Positions 1-10,458 of a DNA stretch of 10,458 nt are shown here, piece by piece. This DNA is from a virus (taxonomy: Duplodnaviria > Heunggongvirae > Uroviricota > Caudoviricetes). How positions within the stretch are numbered: position 1 is the stretch's first letter; each line of letters opens with the position of its first letter. The translations under genes and the position numbers were made by a program. The notes under the pieces were generated by a model, which did no database searches, was not told the origin of the DNA, and was given only the letters and a program-made list of their open reading frames with translations. The stretch is from IMG/VR virus record IMGVR_UViG_2585427789_000026; one strand, 5' to 3'.

Positions 1-1167
1 TCAGGCCTTATGGTGGAAATAATCACTCAGGCGAGAAAACATGCTGCCTTCCCCGACAGATTCCAGGGTAACCAGCGGCCAGTGCGCCACCTGTTTATCA
101 CGGTCGTAAAGTTCAATTTCCCCTACCCGCTGATGGGCGCTAATTGGCGCGGTGAGCTCTTTACCATTAAGGGTATATTTGGCTTTGATATGTGGAATTT
201 CGGCTTTCGGTAGCACCATCCAGAACTCTTGTTCCGTTCCCAGGGCGATATTTTCTTTATCACCATACCAGATGCGTTCCGTACCGACCTTTTTCCTACG
301 GTGCAAAATTTGCACCGTAGTAAAGTTTTGTTGCCCCCAACGCAGTAATTTTTTTGCCTCTTCCTCACGACCTTTTGCGCTGTCAGCACCCATTACCACT
401 GCAATGAGGCGACGCTGCCCGTCTACAGCCGAAGCAATAAGATTAAACCCGGCACCAGAAGTATGGCCCGTTTTCAGGCCGTCAACATTCATGGTCTTAT
501 CCCACAATAACCCGTTACGGTTTTGCTGGGTGATACCGTTCCAGGTGAGGCTTTTCTCACTGTACATATGATAAAACTCGGGCTCGCCGTGGATGATAGC
601 GCGAGAAAGCACGGCTAAATCATAAGCCGAGCTATGCTGGCCAGGTGCATCCAGACCATGCACTGTTTCAAAATGCGTATCCTTGAGATGCAGCTTCTCG
701 GCATAGTTGTTCATCATTTCAACAAACTGCCGTTGCCCACCGGCAATATAGTCAGCCAGAGCAACACACGCGTCATTTCCGGAATCCACAATTAAACCTC
801 GGCTTAAATCACGTACCGATACGCGATCGCCCTCTTTCAAAAACATCAGTGAAGAACCGACAAACACCGGATTATCTTTCGCCCACGCATCACGCCCCAC
901 GGTGACAATATCGTCTGGCGTAATGCGATGACTATCGATAGCGCGATCCACGACATAGCCCGTCATCAGCTTTGTCAGGCTGGCGGGATTGCGCTGTTGA
1001 TGCTCATTACCCGCGGTGAGAATCTGACCGGTGGTGTAATCCATCAATACCCAGGACCCGGCATGAATCTCTGGAGGCTGAGGTGAAAAAGGAATGTTTT
1101 CCGCCGCAAAACCAGACGATAAATTAAAAACGAACAAAGAAGCAGCAATAATAAGACGGCGTTTCAA
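1..1167 (-). CDS. dacD: D-alanyl-D-alanine carboxypeptidase DacD (penicillin-binding protein 6b)
   Basis: Complement ORF with stop at 1-3; translation carries the serine-PBP motifs SLTK (SxxK), SGN and KTG and matches E. coli DacD as recalled. The ORF track extends to a TTG at 1171-1173; the recalled 388-aa protein (MKRRLIIAAS...) starts at the TTG at 1165-1167. Confidence 0.92.
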   Translation of the reverse strand: MKRRLIIAASLFVFNLSSGFAAENIPFSPQPPEIHAGSWVLMDYTTGQILTAGNEHQQRNPASLTKLMTGYVVDRAIDSHRITPDDIVTVGRDAWAKDNPVFVGSSLMFLKEGDRVSVRDLSRGLIVDSGNDACVALADYIAGGQRQFVEMMNNYAEKLHLKDTHFETVHGLDAPGQHSSAYDLAVLSRAIIHGEPEFYHMYSEKSLTWNGITQQNRNGLLWDKTMNVDGLKTGHTSGAGFNLIASAVDGQRRLIAVVMGADSAKGREEEAKKLLRWGQQNFTTVQILHRRKKVGTERIWYGDKENIALGTEQEFWMVLPKAEIPHIKAKYTLNGKELTAPISAHQRVGEIELYDRDKQVAHWPLVTLESVGEGSMFSRLSDYFHHKA

Positions 1168-1375
1168 CAGCAAACCCTCAGGTGTTTCAAATAGCTGTTC
1201 TTTTTACGGAAATACTTATGAACTGGCTGGAATAAAGTGCAAGAAAATGTGACTACTACCTCATTTTTATCTGACATGATCTGTTGCCACTCGCTGCCAA
1301 ATTGTCGCGCTAAAGCTGATTAGCACGGTGATATTTGATACTCTGGCAGACAGCAGAAATAACGGATTTAACCTA

Positions 1376-2195: not shown

Positions 2196-4781
2196 CTACT
2201 CTATCTCTTTTGCTTTTTTAATTATCAATTCAAGCTCTGTTAAACGAGACTCAATGCGTTCACACCTTCTTCGCTGGAATGCAGCCTCCAACCACAAACA
2301 TTCATCTGGACGCAATCCCCAACGCTCACCAGCATGTACAACCAGTTCCGTGTCACCAGTATCGTATTCTTCAAAGTATTCGTGAACGATGTCTTCTCCT
2401 TCAGGGGATTTAGCTATAAATGACACCTTGCGCTGTGCCATTACAGGTTGGTACTCATCATCCCATTTATCATGACATAGCAAGCCAAATCTTGTTCCAT
2501 CTATCCCCTTTGCAAGAAACGCATCTCTTACCTGCTGTGCAATTGCTCCGAAATGCCAACGAGCAGTATCCGAACCTTTAGCCTTAATATCGGACAACCA
2601 CTGGTAAACGATAATATTTACGTCACCCCATGCGTCAAGAATTGCATCCTGATCCACCTCCATGATTTCTGAAAGTTGCTCTACTGTCAGTGGCTTTGTT
2701 TTCAATGTCTGGTCTGAAGTATTTATTGCCCCATTAGTTGCATATACTTGCGTCCACCGTTTAGATGATGTCCCACATGATGACGTATTATCTTTATTAG
2801 CACTTATATAGCCATTAACCTCCGCTGACTGACCGATATACGAATATGAAGATGTTGATAAGGGAGATTTAAATATCCATTGAGCATTGGTAAAGTCATA
2901 AATACCGGTATCACCTTTTTCACTAACATGAAAAGTTACATTCCGTAACGTATTCTTTGCATCATAACGGGCGGCTTGTGTTGTTGCCCTCGAAACAGTG
3001 AATCCTTTGTCATCAAGGTTTGCCTGCTCTATGACTTCACCACCAGGCATAATTTTACCAAGGCTTAACAAACCAGAGTTAGTGACAATATCATGGGTTG
3101 AATCAATGATAATACCAGGCTGATTTCTTGATGTTGTTTTTACATGCATTACCTGTTGTGGCATTAATGTGTAAAATGTAGTTTCTCGCCCACTATCACC
3201 ATCTGGTATGCCATTTGTATTCCCCATTACAAGGTCATACCCACCTGCAATCATACGGAAAAACATTGCTTCTGGTTCATATGTAAGATTGCTAACATCT
3301 GGCGTTCCGGTATCATTTGGATCTGCTATTTCATAGGCTCTTCCTGCACCTGCCTGTATTTGCTGCACCCCAAGATAAACACCATCAAGTGTGTACTGAT
3401 GCAAATATTTTCTGGTTGAAGAATATGCAGATCCAGCCTGACAAAAATAAATAGCAGTACCGTCACACGCAACTGTTTGCATATCCCTCACAAAATCGGC
3501 AATTTCAAATTCAAAAGTTGCTTCATTACGATAATCGTAATTGTACGCCTGCGGGTTAATAAATTTGCTGGTATCAAATACTTTTACATAATAGCGAATT
3601 TGATCTGGTGTTGATGGGCTCTCACCAGGGCCAACATAACGTTTTGCTGTAGTAATCAGCCATCGACTCATAGGGTCGGTGCATAAAACATTTACCTGAT
3701 TCTCGTAACCATCTTCCCATATGAGAAAAAACTCTGGTTCAATTTCACCACCATCAGTAGGGGTGAATCTGGTGATATACTTTGCGCGATCCTCTCCTTT
3801 AGCTGTGCCAGCTAACCCCCATATCTGTAACTGGCCTCTTGTGTTACGAAAACCAACGCGCCCTATGGTTAAACCAAGACATTGATGTCCTAATTCTCTA
3901 CTACCTTTAGTCTCCCAAAGAGGAGTTAACTCTTCATTCCCAAACCAATTATAAGCAACAACTTTATTAACTTCGTCACCAGAACTAACGCTGCCACTCA
4001 CATTTACCAAGCAATAAAGAACACTGTCATAATAATCAAGAACAGCACCCTGTATGACAGTATTTTTAATTGTTGCCAGTCGCAACCCTGACTTAACATG
4101 ATTAGGAGTAGAAGGTCTGAAACCTGTATACATCCCCTTTTTTATAGTTTGTATTCTTTTTTCAGTAAAATCAGCATCTGGCAGTAATCGATTCTCTGTG
4201 CGAAAATAGCCATTTATATACTTATTTCCATCAAAAACTTGATCTGTTATATATGTATTACCCCTTAGATCAACAATCCTTCCTGTGATTTGTTTTTCTA
4301 ACTCTTGAAAAGATAATGTGTCATCGGTGATGCCATCACCTTTTGCTCCCCATCCGCGAGGGTCAGCGTCATCACGCCACCGAGACATCTGCAATTCATG
4401 ATATTTTTTAGCACCTTCCGGGTCTTCTAATTGTTGTCTTAATTGGTCAGGATCGTACTTAAGCACATTCGGAAAATAGAACTGCTGCGTACCATATGCA
4501 TCGTAAACAGCCATAGAATGGCCTTGCACGGTAACGAATTTGGAAATCTGTCCGTTGTATACCGGGTATCCAGCAGCATTGATAACGATTGGCTGTGGCA
4601 CCTGAACATAAGTACCATCTTCTCGTTCCAGATATACTGGAATCTGGTTTTCTGGATTTACCGGATCTGTGTCAATCTTACCGATATAAATTTTTCCATT
4701 TGCTACGGTTTTAAAAGAGCTAGCCATTGTGAAGAGTTGCGATGGCATCCCAATTACAACATTTGGGGTTATATCAGGCAT
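2196..4781 (-). CDS. Phage tailspike: P22-type N-terminal head-binding domain, pectate-lyase-like beta-helix central domain, C-terminal intramolecular chaperone (peptidase S74-like) domain
   Basis: N-terminus [17 protein letters not shown]...[27 protein letters not shown]...[15 protein letters not shown]...NVLKYDPDQ aligns closely with the P22 gp9 / HK620 head-binding domain as recalled. Central [12 protein letters not shown] motif is typical of pectate-lyase-superfamily depolymerases. C-terminal ~173 aa begins SDQTLK (Ser codon 2715-2717), fitting the S-x4-K self-cleavage signature of tail-fibre chaperone domains. Start chosen at ATG 4779-4781 (AGGA 8 nt upstream); the ORF-track start at 4874 has no ribosome-binding site. 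Confidence 0.85.
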
Positions 4782-5197
4782 ATTAGTCATCCTGTTTGAA
4801 GATTTAGATATTGAAGAAAACGGAATGACTGCAGACAAAGATGCAATTGTTTTGAAAAATAACCTTCTATTCATTTAAAAACCATGCAACATGAACAAAA
4901 CGATTATTTTACAATACTCAAGAATCTTGATCAACAGGCATATTATTTATGCGCTTAATGCGTCACTTACAAAAATAAAAACAAGTAATACCTTTATTCC
5001 TATCGTCCATGATTTTTATTTTCAAACATTATTAAATAACAATTCCTATTTATAATATCTGTCATTTAATTTGCTCCAGATACAAGGAATCGCCGCAGCA
5101 TGGCTACGGTGAGCATTTGTTACATACCGAAACGGTACGATTGTTGATTTGTACAGTAGGTTTTACGATGCCATTCCACCCATTTGGTGAGGCATTG

Positions 5198-5455
5198 ATG
5201 ATGTACAGCAAATACGATGAGGCGCAGTTCCACTTGAGGCTTACGCACGAGTTGCACGCTAAGATTAAGCAGCGTGCAAAAATGAATAACAGGTCTATCA
5301 ATTCCGAAATTGTGGCTACGATGGAAGAATCACTCTCCAAACCATCACCTGTAAGCGGGTATCGTGATGAAGAAGAGAGGCTGGACTCATTAATCTCGGA
5401 ACGAGTAAAAGAAGTTGCGGCTGATATCCTTAGAAAAGAAAAAACCCGCGATTAA
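5198..5455 (+). CDS. mnt: Mnt-like ribbon-helix-helix repressor
   Basis: Translation MMYSKYDEAQFHLRLTHELHAKIKQRAKMNNRSINSEIVATMEESLSKPSPVSGYRDEEERL... aligns along its length with P22 Mnt as recalled (…FNFRMP…GRSMNSE…SKPSPVTGYRNDAERL…). GGTGAGG lies 5 nt upstream of the ATG at 5198; a second ATG follows at 5201. Confidence 0.8.
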   Translation: MMYSKYDEAQFHLRLTHELHAKIKQRAKMNNRSINSEIVATMEESLSKPSPVSGYRDEEERLDSLISERVKEVAADILRKEKTRD

Positions 5456-5463
5456 GCGGGTTT
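5442..5463. terminator. Bidirectional intrinsic terminator between convergent mnt and the antirepressor operon
   Basis: Perfect 8-bp stem aaacccgc / gcgggttt with 6-nt loop gattaa, flanked by an A-run upstream (a U-tract for the minus-strand transcript) and ttt on the plus strand. It overlaps the mnt stop codon and lies 7 bp from the stop of the 73-aa ORF. Confidence 0.55.
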
Positions 5464-5469
5464 AGTTGG

Positions 5470-5691
5470 TTAGTTATCAAAAAGTCCGTACGTTTCTTCT
5501 TCTTCAGGTGTAAGGGGAAGAATCTCTACTCTATCTATAGATACCTTTTCAATGTACCCATGAGGCCTACTTAAAATTAAAGCTCTCTCATGCCACAGAA
5601 CTCCAAGAATGTGATACCTTCCAGCATCGCCTTTTACCCTGGCTCTTCCTTTGATTCTTGGCGGCATAATGCCATATTTTTTCTTTGCCAT
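5470..5691 (-). CDS. Hypothetical 73-aa protein (basic N-terminus, acidic C-terminus), translationally coupled to the upstream antirepressor
   Basis: Its ATG (5689-5691) overlaps the TAA stop of the upstream gene (5691-5693) as TAATG; it ends just before the bidirectional terminator. No family recognised. Confidence 0.5.
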   Translation of the reverse strand: MAKKKYGIMPPRIKGRARVKGDAGRYHILGVLWHERALILSRPHGYIEKVSIDRVEILPLTPEEEETYGLFDN

Positions 5692-6416
5692 TATGCAACA
5701 TTACTCCCATGAATAAGGTGTTGTAGTGCTTTAACACCTTCCTCATTGTAGCGGAACGCTTCCACCTGTTTGCTGGAATGCGCAGATTTATCCAGGAAGA
5801 ACTTCCCGTACTGCTCAGTTTTGAGGTTGTTTGCGTTAGCAATGCGACCAATCTTGTTGGCCGTTACTCCAAGCTGCTCTGCAACCTCCCCTGCTGAGTA
5901 GTAATGCTCTTCTATTGCCGGAAGAGGTATTGCATTAAAACCAACGAGCGGGTTGATTATACTTGCTGCCGCTGTCTGCTTTGCCTCCGGCGCAAGATTT
6001 GGCATCAGATCGAACAGATTGGTAACAGCTTCAACCGTCATTTTCAATGTTCGCGCTTGACGATACTCAACAAGTCCACTCGCTGATTTACCGCTTTTAA
6101 TGTGCGCTTCCTGCATACTTTCAAGTTTGTCTACAAGTGTTCGGCGAACTGCTTTAGATTCGCGAGCAGCAACACGAAGCGCCTGCTTGATAGTCATGGA
6201 GATAACATCAATGTCAGCCCCGTTTTTCCGACCTACACTTTTTGTGTAGGTCTCGCCTTCCAATTCATCCTCAATTTTCTCGATGAATTTGTTGTTACGT
6301 ACTGATGGCTCTCCACATAACTTGCGAGCTTCATTAACCATCATCAGAAGACTTTGGCTGTCAATGGTTTTATCCGTGACAACGGATCCGATGTTTGCTA
6401 CATTCTTAAAAGTCAT
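5691..6416 (-). CDS. Phage antirepressor / regulatory protein, Rha-like N-terminus with KilA-C (ANT) C-terminal domain
   Basis: C-terminal YYSAGEVAEQLGVTANKIGRIANANNLKTEQYGKFF...FRYNEEGVKAL fits the KilA-C antirepressor domain pattern; N-terminal ...DSQSLLMMVNEARKL...VRNNKFIEKIE resembles Rha/ORF6N. Start chosen at ATG 6414-6416 (MTFKN..., AAGGA about 7 nt upstream) rather than the ORF-track TTG at 6503. Confidence 0.65.
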   Translation of the reverse strand: MTFKNVANIGSVVTDKTIDSQSLLMMVNEARKLCGEPSVRNNKFIEKIEDELEGETYTKSVGRKNGADIDVISMTIKQALRVAARESKAVRRTLVDKLESMQEAHIKSGKSASGLVEYRQARTLKMTVEAVTNLFDLMPNLAPEAKQTAAASIINPLVGFNAIPLPAIEEHYYSAGEVAEQLGVTANKIGRIANANNLKTEQYGKFFLDKSAHSSKQVEAFRYNEEGVKALQHLIHGSNVA

Positions 6417-6485: not shown

Positions 6486-6503
6486 CGCAGTCCGGCGCAC
6501 CAA

Positions 6504-7142
6504 TCAATGAATCCATTCCTCGCCGCGAAGTTTTGCCAGCATTGGCTGAGCGTTCTTTACGACAAAATTGTTGGTATCAAGATTCTTCATTTCACGAAGA
6601 AGTGATTTCTTGGTTTCTTCTGACATGTAGCGAGTCTCATATGCAATATCGTAAATCCTTCCTGAAAGCTCAGAACCAATTTGCTTCATTCCTGGGTAGA
6701 TGTGTTTGCACATTTGTTGACTCTTCTCCATCCACAATTGTAAGTAGCAGAGATTAACCAGCTCTTCGTCAGTGAACTGTTTTGCAATCGGTGAGCATTC
6801 TGCCTGCCGATCCAAAATATCCAGCACCCAGCGGCGGAACTCTTTGGCCTTGGGCGTAGAAGCAAACATCGCCACCAAGTGAGCGCCTCGGAGTGAGTAA
6901 ACTCTGACCGATTTGTTACGTAAGCTATTGTTTATTCCGTTGACCTTCATATTGAGGGTCAATGACATTGAGTCGGAAAATTCGTCAGCATTACGGGCAT
7001 AAATTTGGCTGATGGCATCAGTTTTTTTATAGCCGAGAGCCTTAGCTAGTTCGGTGGAGGTAAACCAGATAGACCCGCCCTCTGTTACAGGGTTAAAAGT
7101 GAATCCTTGGAAGTTATAATCTGATTTTGCTACAATATTCAT
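6504..7142 (-). CDS. Phage antirepressor with Bro-N / AntA-type N-terminal domain
   Basis: N-terminal ...FQGFTFNPVTEGGSIWFTSTELAKALGY...VYSLRGAHLVAMFASTPKAKEFRRWVLDILD matches the Bro-N / antirepressor N-domain pattern. Start chosen at ATG 7140-7142 (MNIVAKSDYNFQ, AAGGAAA 6 nt upstream), downstream of the arc stop; the ORF-track start at 7247 overlaps arc. Confidence 0.65.
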   Translation of the reverse strand: MNIVAKSDYNFQGFTFNPVTEGGSIWFTSTELAKALGYKKTDAISQIYARNADEFSDSMSLTLNMKVNGINNSLRNKSVRVYSLRGAHLVAMFASTPKAKEFRRWVLDILDRQAECSPIAKQFTDEELVNLCYLQLWMEKSQQMCKHIYPGMKQIGSELSGRIYDIAYETRYMSEETKKSLLREMKNLDTNNFVVKNAQPMLAKLRGEEWIH

Positions 7143-7220
7143 GTTAGTTTCCTTGAGTACGGTTACTGACATAGAGGCCCGGTTTGTGTTCGCGCACTGC
7201 CGGGCTTCACTATTTTTATT
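7143..7220 (+). ncRNA. Putative second sar-like antisense RNA covering the ribosome-binding site of the Bro-N antirepressor
   Basis: Candidate promoter TTGGAA (7107-7112), 18-bp spacer, TACAAT (7131-7136) would start transcription at about 7143, beside the Bro-N start codon, and run about 70 nt to the hairpin and T-tract at 7174-7220. Same geometry as the 6411-6485 unit. Confidence 0.3.
7174..7220 (+). terminator. Plus-strand terminator-like hairpin with T-rich tail at the arc 3' end, upstream of the Bro-N gene
   Basis: GC stem gcccgg (7177-7182) / ccgggc (7200-7205) with extension, followed on the plus strand by ttcactatttttatt. The minus-strand side has no U-tract. Confidence 0.4.
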
Positions 7221-7389
7221 GGATGACAACATCGCCCTTTGCCTCAAGTTTCATTAATAACTCCATTCGATAAGCTATCTCTGCCTGAATTGACCTATGG
7301 CATCTTTTTGCTGATTCGCGGATATGTGAATCAACCTTTTCTGTAAAACGAACCTGACGCGGCTTGATGGAAGATATCTTTTCAGTCAT
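7216..7389 (-). CDS. arc: Arc-like ribbon-helix-helix repressor (57 aa; not in the supplied ORF track)
   Basis: Hand translation of the complement strand: MTEKISSIKPRQVRFTEKVDSHIRESAKRCHRSIQAEIAYRMELLMKLEAKGDVVIQ-stop. It aligns with P22 Arc as recalled (…PQFNLRWPREVLDLVRKVAEENGRSVNSEIYQRVMESF…). AGGAG lies 6 nt upstream of the ATG at 7387-7389. Confidence 0.7.
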   Translation of the reverse strand: MTEKISSIKPRQVRFTEKVDSHIRESAKRCHRSIQAEIAYRMELLMKLEAKGDVVIQ

Positions 7390-7435: not shown

Positions 7436-7467
7436 TTGATTATTCACTCACACTCAGTATGAGTCAA
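7436..7467. promoter_or_regulatory. Overlapping divergent promoters with candidate operator (palindrome ACTCA-gta-TGAGT plus ACTCA repeats) between arc and the CI-like gene
   Basis: Minus strand: TTGACT (complement of 7462-7467), 17 bp, AATAAT (complement of 7439-7444), reading into arc. Plus strand: TTGATT (7436-7441), about 16 bp, TATGAG, a weaker promoter reading into the CI-like gene. The 13-bp palindrome at 7452-7464 overlaps both; further ACTCA half-sites at 7412 and 7445. Confidence 0.4.
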
Positions 7468-7488: not shown

Positions 7489-8130
7489 ATGAATTTTGAC
7501 GATCAATTCCCATCAAGAGTATCTCTGGCAAGACAGTCCAGGGGTATGACGCAGGCGCAGTTGTCAAAATTAGCTGGTGTTGTTCAACGTCAAATAGCTG
7601 CATACGAGGGTGGTGAGGCTAAACCACGGCTTCGGGTATTGCAGGCATTAGCCAACGCATTAGGTACTACGGCTGAGTGGTTAGCTCTAGGTGAAGGTCA
7701 GGGTCCGGGAACAAAAAACGTCATGCCTGACGTTCTGGTAAAGCAAATACCAATTCTCAAACTAGATGAAGTTATGCATTACCTAAACACAGGTGAACAT
7801 TCATCGTCTAGATTTCATCCTGCAATATACAATGTTGGTGACTCTGCATTTGCATTGACTATTGAAGGTGAAGCTATGACTACAAGTTCAGGTATTAGCT
7901 TTCCCAGAGGATCGGTTGTCACGTTCAGCCCTCTAGTAAAAGCTAAAAGCAAAGATTATGTAATAGCATCATTGGATAAAGAGCAAATATTGAGCTTCAA
8001 ACAGGTTTACATTGGTGAAATAGAGACAAACCTAGTATCCCTAAACCCAATGTATCCTAATATTCTTGTTAGAAATGAAGATGTTAGTATTTTGGCAACC
8101 GCAGTTTACCTTGAAATCCCGTTGCTTTGA
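7489..8130 (+). CDS. CI-like repressor (XRE-type HTH plus LexA/S24-like C-terminal domain) with catalytic Ser and cleavage site replaced
   Basis: N-terminal HTH (…GMTQAQLSKLAGVVQRQIAAYEGG…); C-terminal GDSAFALTIEGEAM…SFPRG…LSFKQV…LNPMYP aligns with lambda CI GDSAFWLEVEGNSM…SFPDG…FTFKKL…LNPQYP. The G-x-S-M nucleophile position reads Ala (GCT 7873-7875) and the Ala-Gly scissile position reads Asp-Glu. Confidence 0.8.
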   Translation: MNFDDQFPSRVSLARQSRGMTQAQLSKLAGVVQRQIAAYEGGEAKPRLRVLQALANALGTTAEWLALGEGQGPGTKNVMPDVLVKQIPILKLDEVMHYLNTGEHSSSRFHPAIYNVGDSAFALTIEGEAMTTSSGISFPRGSVVTFSPLVKAKSKDYVIASLDKEQILSFKQVYIGEIETNLVSLNPMYPNILVRNEDVSILATAVYLEIPLL

Positions 8131-8396: not shown

Positions 8397-8931
8397 TCAC
8401 TGCTGTGTTGCCTCAGTGGCAAGCAGCGGTCTGATGGCATTTGCAGCGTTACTTAATGCTCTTTCATAGGCTGGCGTTCCTGCTTTGGTGTTTGCCAGAC
8501 GTAAGAGCGCATTCCTGGCCATAGGGCTTTCATAAACCCTCGACATAAGGCCAATCCCTGTTTCCCCAGCCAATAGCGCGCCTCCGGTTTTTAGGTTACC
8601 AATAACCCTTACCAAAGGCGCGAGTGTCATGCCAGTCTTCGTCACAACATTAGCCTCAGATGCTCTTTTGGTAGCATCGAGAATAGATAACATCCCCTCT
8701 ATCTCTTTTCCGTTCTTCCCACCAAATACAGTTTTAAACACCTGACCATTTGCTTGTTTTTGCAGCTTGCCAAGCTCGGTCATCATTTTCTGAGGGCTGT
8801 CACCTACCTTGTCAGCTATTTTGCTGATATATGCCGCCCTTAGCATGTCTTTACCTTTTTGATCGAGTTTCCCGTACAATCGAGCTATATCTGACCCATA
8901 TTGTCCATACACAATGGTATTTACAGCCTCG
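8397..8931 (-). pseudogene. 3' fragment of a phage late gene (putative DNA-ejection / internal virion protein, gp16-like by position), truncated by IS66 insertion
   Basis: The reading frame stays open upstream of the listed GTG (8912) straight into the IS66 end, with no convincing ribosome-binding site. The protein is low-complexity and Ala/Gly/Lys-rich. The gp16 assignment rests only on position relative to P22 gene order. Confidence 0.4.
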
Positions 8932-10458
8932 GTAAGCGGCTCGCCAGAACCGTATTGATATTTACTGAGAGGTCAGATCAACTTTCCAGGGCAACAGATC
9001 GCGTACCCGGTTTGCCGGCCAATCCTGGATATGCTCAATGACGTAACGCAGCCATTTTTCTGGTTCCACATTGTTCAGACGGCATGTGCCGATCAGCGAG
9101 TACAACACCGCCGCATGTTCGCCACCGCTGTCGGAACCCGCGAACAGCCAGTTTTTCCGGCCTACGGCCACTCCCCGTAAGGCGTTCTCTGCGATGTTGT
9201 TGTCGATTTCCACCCAGCCATTACTGCAGTACACGTTCAGGCCATCCCACTGTTTCAGCAGGTATGCGAACGCTTTTGCCGTATCCGAGTGACGCGACAG
9301 TGTTTTCATCTGAGTCTGTATCCAGTCATACAGTGACTGCATCAGTGGCGCGGCTCTGGCTTTTCTTGCCGCCAGACGCTGTTCTGCTGAACATCCCCGG
9401 ACTTCTGCCTCGATGGCATACAGTTCACCGATACGCTGCAGGGCTTCCGTGGTGATGTCGGTGGGCACTCTTGCATGCACATCGTGGATTTTTCTCCGGG
9501 CATGAGCCATACACGCGGCTTCCGTTATTCTGCCGGATTCGTATAACACCCGGTAACCACCGTAAGCATCGGCCTGAAGCACACCGCTGTAACCGGCCAG
9601 ATGATTTTGTGGATGGATACCTTTCCGGTCCGGTGAGTACGCGAACCAGACCGCCGGGGGCATTTCCGAACCGGCGTTACGGTCATCACGGACGTAGACC
9701 CACAGCCGGGCGGTCCGGGTTTTACCGCTGCCCGGCTCCTGGACCGGGACGGGGATATCATCAGCATGGACTTTACCGGGCATCAGCACATACTGGCGCA
9801 GGACGTCATACAGCGGCTCCAGCAGTTCAGCAACGGCACCTGTCCAGCGCCCCAGCGTGGCGCGGCTCAGCTCCACGCCCTGGCGACGGTATATTTCTGA
9901 CTGGCGGTATAACGGCAGATGGTCTGCATATTTCCCGGTAACAACATGGGCCAGAAGCCCCGCTCCGGCATAACTGCGTGCAATGGGTTTTGAAGGTACT
10001 GTTGCCTGCACGATATGGTCGCACCGACAACAGGCCAGTTTCGGACGTTGTGTTTCGATAACCTTAAAGGCGCTGCTGATAAGCTCCAGTTGCTCTGACA
10101 CATCACACCCCAGAGGACTGAGGTCACCACCACAGGCCGGGCAGCATTCCTCTTCCGGCCGGATGACCCGGGTTTCACGGGGAAGTGAGGCCGGTAACGG
10201 TTTACGGGCTGAAGACTGGCGCAGGGCGGATGGCAGTACCGGGTCATATTGCTCACCCAGCGTTTCCGCCATTTCTTCCTGAAGTGCGCTGATTCGCTCC
10301 TGTGCTTCCTGTATCTGCCGTTCGGTTTTAGCGCGAAGTTTTTCTGAGCTTTTACCGAACTGCATGCGCTGCAGTTTCGCAACCAGCGCCTTCAGCCGGT
10401 TGATTTCGGAAGCATAAGCCGCCACCCGCTGTGAGAGCAGGCGGTTGTATTTCGCCAT
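8932..10458 (-). mobile_element. IS66-family insertion sequence, right end, continuing beyond the window
   Basis: GC-rich block beginning GTAAGCGGC at 8932, consistent with the GTAA terminus typical of IS66-family inverted repeats as recalled, 30 bp from the transposase stop. Sharp composition change from the AT-rich phage sequence. Confidence 0.75.
8962..10458 (-). CDS. tnpC: IS66-family transposase (TnpC/orf3), N-terminally truncated by the window edge
   Basis: 498-aa ORF ending ...[11 protein letters not shown], with leucine-zipper-like N-region, CxxC...CxC zinc motif (CPACGG...CCRCDH) and a conserved catalytic core. The M at 10458 corresponds to an internal position in full-length IS66 TnpC as recalled, so the true start lies outside the window. 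Confidence 0.9.

Follow-up and report, generated by a model that had tools for sequence, protein, structure and literature searches.

The window analysed here comprises 10,458 nucleotides (nt) of the IMG/VR virus record IMGVR_UViG_2585427789_000026 and, beyond a chromosomal gene at its start, represents the right end of a P22-like Escherichia coli prophage. Its minus strand carries a 222-nt open reading frame (ORF; positions 5470–5691, read from 5691 to 5470) that encodes a protein of 73 amino acids (aa), MAKKKYGIMPPRIKGRARVKGDAGRYHILGVLWHERALILSRPHGYIEKVSIDRVEILPLTPEEEETYGLFDN, and that matches the phage protein family phrog_4977. This gene is the last cistron of an immI-type operon, in which it follows an Arc-like gene and two antirepressor-type genes and precedes an intrinsic terminator. 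Between positions 5100 and 7500, the window shares 100% identity with JEP4 (MT740315), an Escherichia phage of the genus Lederbergvirus.

The 73-aa ORF is a genuine protein-coding gene, as judged from its intactness in 42 loci, from purifying selection, from about 110 clusters of homologues, and from a start that these homologues share behind Shine–Dalgarno (SD) motifs of their own. It is the sole open frame across the 222 nt. All 42 IMG/VR loci with the gene carry it intact, with amino-acid identities of 97 to 100%, and their 17 distinct DNA alleles were used for a polymorphism test. These alleles differ at 23 variable sites, 15 of which lie at third codon positions. In the annotated frame, 18 changes are synonymous and six are nonsynonymous, where the expected synonymous fraction is 0.22 (p = 4e-8); the corresponding ratio of nonsynonymous to synonymous substitution rates (dN/dS) is approximately 0.09. 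The nonsynonymous changes are conservative (K>R, P>S, R>M, A>S, and, twice, V>I). No synonymous excess was found for the same alleles in the two other sense frames and two of the antisense frames, and the antisense frame that has the wobble position in common with the gene showed a weaker excess (12:11, p = 0.005) and holds three stops. Loss of the reading frame in related prophages, which the initial annotation had envisaged as evidence against the gene, was not seen in these 42 loci.

The start codon is also well defined. Homologues at 30 to 50% identity share the N-terminus, each behind its own well-spaced SD motif, which identifies the ATG at 5691 as the true start. An internal start, prompted by database proteins with frameshifted N-termini, was ruled out for this reason and because no other part of the family is as well conserved as the N-terminal KYGxMPP segment. 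Such frameshifted proteins are few and come mostly from read-assembled contigs. The complete genome of E. coli strain A10 has a 1-nt deletion (GGAAGG>GGAGG, codon 24/25) that frameshifts the gene (L066, approximately 1557–1790); RefSeq annotates no coding sequence at this locus, which may be a pseudogene or an assembly error. Together with the poor SD spacing described later, these observations could be taken to mean that the ORF is spurious, that is, an open but untranslated part of the 3′ untranslated region of the antirepressor operon. This idea is effectively refuted by the frame-specific selection, by the intact frame in every one of the 42 loci, by the many clusters that keep both the protein sequence and their own SD motifs, and by a confident, covariation-based predicted fold.

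The operon is preceded by a candidate equivalent of the P22 promoter P_ant, a sigma-70-like sequence (TTGACT-17-AATAAT, 10 of 12 matches; 7439–7467, minus strand) located upstream of the Arc-like gene. Matches of this kind to the sigma-70 consensus occur six times, compared with 6.5 expected in shuffled sequences, and the argument for this promoter is therefore its position and not its score. The first cistron (7216–7389, minus strand) encodes a 57-aa Arc-like ribbon-helix-helix protein, which matches phrog_10182 and, below the cut-off, Arc/ParD_like, is named “Arc family DNA-binding protein” in RefSeq, and is presumed to be the autoregulator of the operon. The second cistron (6504–7142, minus strand) encodes a Bro-N/P22_AR_C antirepressor, Ant (PF02498, PF10548; phrog_245). 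The third (5691–6416, minus strand) encodes an antirepressor-like protein of 241 aa when read from the ATG at 6416; its longest ORF begins at a TTG at 6503. The initial annotation had named the product of this third cistron a KilA-C antirepressor. The antirepressor label comes solely from a match to phrog_1726 (“anti-repressor”; E = 3e-102) and from GenBank, where the JEP4 gene, JEP4_17, is called “KilA protein”; the KilA-C assignment finds no counterpart in Pfam, in which no KilAC/ANT match was obtained even at E ≤ 10. A Serratia ORF6N protein cross-matches phrog_1726, and this shared match suggests that the N-terminal part of the third cistron's product is related to ORF6N-type antirepressors.

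The overlap of the start codon with the antirepressor stop, already recognized in the initial annotation, is confirmed. The TAA (5693–5691) and the ATG (5691–5689) share one base in a TAATG junction (5689–5693, minus strand). Neither this junction nor the GGGAG(T/C)AATGTTGCATA ahead of it varies among the 42 IMG/VR loci. The SD-like GGGAG lies 12 nt 5′ of the ATG, and this long spacing makes termination–reinitiation the likely mode of initiation. Coupling to the upstream gene is limited to the E. coli/Salmonella clade. On the 3′ side, a hairpin of the form AAACCCGC-ttaatc-GCGGGTTT, followed by a T-run (5442–5463, minus strand), begins 6 nt past the stop of the 73-aa gene. Other phage backbones carry a sequence-unrelated terminator, AAACCCAGC-ttcg-GCTGGGTTTTT, at the equivalent place, and the hairpin always lies within approximately 6 to 13 nt 3′ of the gene. 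Two unrelated hairpins, depending on the backbone, thus occupy this position, as would be expected of a transcription unit designed to contain the gene.

In the E. coli/Salmonella clade, the 73-aa gene is always found directly 3′ of the phrog_1726 gene. This arrangement extends to a myovirus-type prophage in which the baseplate cluster harbors the complete cassette (Arc-family gene, Ant, phrog_1726, 73-aa gene, terminator). There, it lies between the gene for an SLT/lytic tail protein and genes for baseplate hub or wedge proteins (L026, 2620–5222; L067, 4040–6451) and ends in a different terminator sequence. The converse does not hold, since alleles of the operon that lack the gene exist in E. 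coli OZ040950, in Klebsiella phage phiKp_30, and in roughly twelve further complete genomes. At the empty site (L045, 5057–5082; L002, 4199–4224), 20 nt (CATTTTATAATGAAAACTAA...) separate the TAA of the antirepressor from an identical terminator. The antirepressors of these gene-free alleles each share 99% identity with one of the two main gene-carrying allele types. In FDAARGOS_1288, the antirepressor is truncated, and the 73-aa gene is intact. Presence or absence of the gene is hence independent of the antirepressor allele, which marks it as an add-on and not as an antirepressor subunit. The gene behaves as a self-sufficient single-gene cassette that is plugged onto the end of an antirepressor operon. 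It is found in approximately 53 of 5426 complete E. coli genomes, and the exact 73-aa protein is encoded on at least 1000 E. coli contigs.

More distant relatives occupy a variety of sites. In podophage prophages of Klebsiella and Serratia, they are located between the genes for ejection proteins and that for the tailspike; the Serratia copies have an ORF6N or Bro-N antirepressor gene nearby, in a different order or orientation. The relative on a Salmonella plasmid lies beside TIR/SLATT defense genes, a toxin–antitoxin pair, Hha, and ProQ; since this is a cargo region, the idea that plasmid copies reside in conjugative leading regions was dropped. On elements of Pseudomonas, Burkholderia, Stutzerimonas, and Vibrio, relatives are embedded in arrays of small unknown genes. 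An all-against-all BLASTP comparison of the neighbors in nine contexts yielded no common gene other than the gene itself, and PHROG and Pfam scans of the immediate neighbors of the relatives were mostly blank.

The initial annotation recognized no family for the 73-aa protein. This holds insofar as no functionally annotated family matches, but the protein does belong to a family, as its residues 1–73 align to positions 1–73 of the 73-position profile of phrog_4977 (PHROGs v4, no functional annotation; E = 5.5e-54, 181 bits); 74 of 75 collected homologues match this profile as well. The approximately 110 clusters referred to above were retrieved by exhaustive searching with HMMER and by two profile searches, and they come from Pseudomonas, Stutzerimonas, Serratia, Klebsiella, Burkholderia, Vibrio, Aeromonas, Citrobacter, Cedecea, and Salmonella. 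Residues M1, Y6, G7, M9, P10, A17, G21, G30, W33, R42, E48, and I52 are conserved across the family. Scans against Pfam (to E ≤ 10), NCBIfam, and PADLOC (which covers defense proteins only) gave no match. Likewise, none of the antirepressor domains Bro-N (PF02498), P22_AR_C (PF10548), ANT/KilAC (PF03374), and ORF6N (PF10543) was matched in Pfam, NCBIfam, or PHROGs. The Arc/Mnt ribbon-helix-helix family (PF03869) gave no match either, and the predicted structure is all-β plus one terminal helix. No copy was present among the GTDB species representatives, and JEP4 is the only close copy in INPHARED. Taken together, phrog_4977 is a self-contained, horizontally mobile family that resides on phages, on plasmids, and on genomic islands in Gamma- and Betaproteobacteria. 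The gene is already known to the extent that GenBank and RefSeq list its product as a “hypothetical protein” and that PHROGs places it in phrog_4977; no paper mentioning the gene was found in the literature searched, including a phage accessory-gene screen and its supplements.

Some relatives depart from the single-domain form. P0011, P0017, and P0153 to P0158 have an unannotated C-terminal extension of approximately 90 aa (YTVWGG...), and P0014 and P0171 have an N-terminal phrog_9154 domain, whose annotation assigns no function. Neither type of fusion gives a hint of function. The 258-kb jumbo phage NCTB (LT598654) contains a clear family member as an unannotated 60-aa ORF with a GTG start, MSRNKSKMPPLPESWQYAKVSGDAGTYRVWALDWLNHRVALDRAGEIDWVHISRITFVNK (L077, 2950–3132, plus strand), which overlaps the 3′ end of a QueD-like gene (1899–2963) by 14 nt.

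Structure prediction, one of the checks proposed in the initial annotation, was carried out with AlphaFold (AF2) and yielded, with high confidence (mean predicted local distance difference test score, pLDDT, of 90.3), a model in which the protein forms a five-stranded SH3/Tudor-like β-barrel. The modeled domain is a strongly bent antiparallel barrel of five strands and about 50 to 60 residues, as is characteristic of this fold class. The KYGxMPP segment, conserved family-wide, is modeled at a pLDDT of approximately 80 and presumably forms an arm that lies against the barrel. The basic N-terminal part and the acidic tail noted previously were both recovered: residues 1–58 carry a net charge of +8 and residues 59–73 a net charge of −5. 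This dipole is a property of the family, in which the core averages +3.4 (net positive in 96% of members) and the tail averages −3.2 (net negative in 93%).

Foldseek returned nothing below an E-value of 1e-3 and no significant match in BFVD or the PDB, and a profile search of all PDB chains, YopX-family entries included, gave zero matches at E ≤ 10. Pfam KOW, Tudor, and SH3 models did not match the protein. Compared with SH3-like barrels such as Tudor domains, the C-terminal domain of retroviral integrase, the KOW domains of NusG/Spt5, and Sm-like proteins, the sequence identity is 4 to 19%, the structural matches do not exceed what any two barrels of this type would give, and motifs specific to these families were not detected at the sequence level.

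A possible evolutionary link emerged from one homologue, P0176. Residues 9–46 of this protein are typical of the phrog_4977 family (profile E = 3e-9), and its first eight residues and residues 27–132 are those of a regular YopX protein, with matches to PF09643 (E = 2.4e-17) and to PDB entries 2qyz, 2ox7, and 2p84. In tblastn searches, P0176 matches many phage YopX genes from residue 1 onward. By these sequence matches, P0176 is a YopX protein with a phrog_4977-type N-terminal subdomain. Eight independent YopX proteins, with P0176 left out, were aligned for a profile–profile comparison. The family core aligned to the N-terminal 50 residues of YopX (approximately residues 4–50) with a probability of 78% (P = 1.8e-5), in the register that P0176 predicts; comparison of the full-length profiles gave 49%, and reversed and C-terminal controls gave 0.1 to 0.5%. 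In this alignment, the family core and the YopX N-terminal subdomain (PF09643; solved structures 2qyz, 2ox7, and 2p84) line up along the pattern A-[KW]-x-K...Y-x-V-x-x-I-D-[WF]...V. PF09643 (gathering score 22.4 bits) does not match the 73-aa protein itself at E ≤ 10. These comparisons hint at kinship of the family with the N-terminal subdomain of YopX, which we regard as probable, not proven. The 73-aa protein is not a YopX protein, however, because the defining C-terminal core is absent: the motifs LMQYTGLxDKNGxxIYEGD and VIGNIxENPELL, invariant or near-invariant in the eight YopX proteins, are lacking in the 73-aa protein, which ends after the barrel and the acidic tail. The literature on YopX holds annotation mentions only.

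The window starts in a chromosomal penicillin-binding-protein gene (1–1173, minus strand), and all else in it belongs to the P22-like prophage. Downstream of the operon lies the tailspike gene (2196–4874, minus strand), in which similarity to JEP4 (99%) is confined to residues 1–149, the head-binding domain. The part that binds the receptor differs, which points to a swap of the tailspike module between otherwise identical phages. The longest ORF of this gene includes an N-terminal extension of approximately 28 codons ahead of the P22-like start. Between the tailspike gene and the operon, a convergent Mnt/Arc-family gene was identified by Pfam and PHROG matches (5198–5455, plus strand; JEP4_19, “regulatory protein mnt”), and its stop codon sits within the hairpin of the operon terminator. 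On the other side of the operon, a divergent gene (7489–8130, plus strand) was assigned by Pfam, PHROG, and comparison with JEP4 to the helix-turn-helix (HTH) plus peptidase S24 (C2/LexA-like) repressors; it is the likely controller of the operon. This type of repressor, potentially RecA-cleavable, occupies the slot here and in approximately half of the related loci, and would render the antirepressor operon SOS-inducible. Other relatives, for example E. coli 55989, have an Arc/Mnt-family repressor in the same divergent slot; the two types are alternative repressor cassettes (loci compared: L062, 5592–5912; L004/L014, approximately 3033–3143). Further on, only the C-terminal 171 aa of a gene-16-type DNA transfer protein are encoded (8397–8912, minus strand), where the intact JEP4 gene encodes approximately 621 aa (L001, 9298–11163). 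An IS66-family transposase ORF of 498 aa (8962–10458, minus strand) begins approximately 50 nt past this truncated gene and runs off the window end. The ejection-protein gene hence appears to be interrupted by an insertion sequence, in which case the prophage would be defective for infection. An Rfam scan and a tRNA search of the whole window found no RNA family and no tRNA.

As to function, we tentatively favor, with a probability of about 0.4, a composite reading in which the 73-aa protein is a small, stoichiometrically acting binder of nucleic acid or of a nucleic-acid-handling protein that serves takeover or conflict and not the control of its own antirepressor. The protein would be translated by termination–reinitiation at the TAATG junction and would therefore accompany the antirepressors each time the operon opens. 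A burst of synthesis may follow DNA entry, until the Arc-like protein shuts the promoter; derepression would bring further synthesis, as might, by analogy with P22, late read-through. The basic barrel could then provide a binding surface for nucleic acid, or for a nucleic-acid-handling protein of the host or of a co-resident element, and the acidic tail might act as a modulator or as a hook for a partner. Such a protein would serve the takeover of the host or a conflict with defenses or with co-resident elements.

Coupled synthesis had led to the suggestion, in the initial annotation, that the gene encodes a regulator of the antirepressor, and this suggestion is weakened here. A dedicated modulator of the phrog_1726 antirepressor (a chaperone, inhibitor, or specificity factor), made in a 1:1 ratio by way of the TAATG junction, would account for the invariance of that junction in all loci and on two phage backbones and for the ORF6N or Bro-N genes near the Serratia relatives; moreover, the 73-aa protein (97–100% identity) is more conserved than the antirepressor (86–100%). 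Gene-free counterparts of the antirepressors of both allele types, at 99% identity, nevertheless exist in E. coli and phiKp_30, and members on a Klebsiella phage, on the Salmonella plasmid, and on Pseudomonas, Burkholderia, Stutzerimonas, and Vibrio islands have neither an antirepressor nor any common neighbor. Gene order and orientation relative to the antirepressors also differ in Serratia. Because the immI-like slot houses podophage antirepressors anyway, the proximity may be merely positional. Partnership of the protein with the antirepressor is not obligate; a regulatory role is disfavored, and we regard the dedicated modulator as quite unlikely. A third, small antirepressor-type effector, which would bind and inactivate a repressor or another DNA-binding regulator of a resident prophage or element with its acidic tail competing with DNA, would fit co-expression in one operon with two antirepressors, the family-wide conservation of that tail, and the occurrence of the gene on diverse, mutually competing mobile elements. 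Precedents are the small, unrelated antirepressors Coi of P1 and Tum of phage 186. We find such an effector very doubtful, given the lack of similarity to the antirepressor families in Pfam, PHROGs, and NCBIfam and a basic core that is unlike DNA-mimic proteins, with no identifiable target.

An unlikely possibility, also raised in the initial annotation as an anti-defense factor, is an anti-defense role proper, in which the protein would directly inhibit one particular bacterial immune system. Small size, presence/absence polymorphism at a fixed site, and movement among phages, plasmids, and islands are all in line with this, as would be a place in the earliest phage transcripts if the promoter acts like P_ant of P22. 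In addition, orphan methyltransferase genes adjoin a Stutzerimonas copy, and the NCTB copy is next to the QueD-like DNA-modification gene. These points are offset by the negative scan with PADLOC, which covers defense proteins only, by the absence of the gene from the accessory-gene screen supplements searched and from the literature found, and by heterogeneous neighborhoods devoid of a recurrent anti-defense island signature. A broader and more speculative reading, which we think improbable, is that stand-alone YopX-N-like mini-barrels with an acidic tail constitute a new class of inter-element conflict effectors, which phages, plasmids, and islands would carry as a plug-in cassette. In P22-like phages, such an effector would be fired with the two antirepressors, to disarm a host defense or to awaken or neutralize co-resident elements.

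New in this work are the coding evidence, the operon anatomy, the with/without polymorphism, and the delineation of the family across mobile elements, together with a confident predicted fold, a conserved charge dipole, and the tentative link to the YopX N-terminal module. At present, this adds one more well-supported, uncharacterized small phage accessory gene. A defined target, should the protein prove to have one, would give phrog_4977, a family that is rare in sequence diversity, a function, and by extension might give one to the YopX N-terminal module (YopX is very common in phages, and structures of it have been solved); it would also show that immI-type antirepressor operons carry extra payloads. 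Were the conflict-effector reading true, it would provide the first functional handle on the large YopX family. With its natural with and without alleles and an isolated phage, JEP4, the gene is a clean candidate for screens for anti-defense or prophage conflict.

The operon is best compared with immI of P22, in which arc and ant are transcribed from P_ANT, are repressed by Arc, and are also read from P_LATE (PMC12111858). As in P22, an Arc-like gene comes first, followed by antirepressor genes and by a terminator before the tailspike gene, and the whole lies between a gene-16-type ejection gene and the tailspike. Unlike P22, which has one Ant and no distal small gene, the present operon has two antirepressor-type genes and the 73-aa gene. 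Moreover, mnt is upstream and divergent in P22, whereas here the divergent gene is the HTH–S24 repressor and the mnt-like gene is downstream and convergent. In immI of P1, a small ORF, icd, is translationally coupled with the antirepressor gene and precedes ant. The position of icd 5′ of ant is opposite to that of the 73-aa gene, which lies 3′ of its antirepressor gene, and the parallel, which involves no sequence comparison, is an analogy only.
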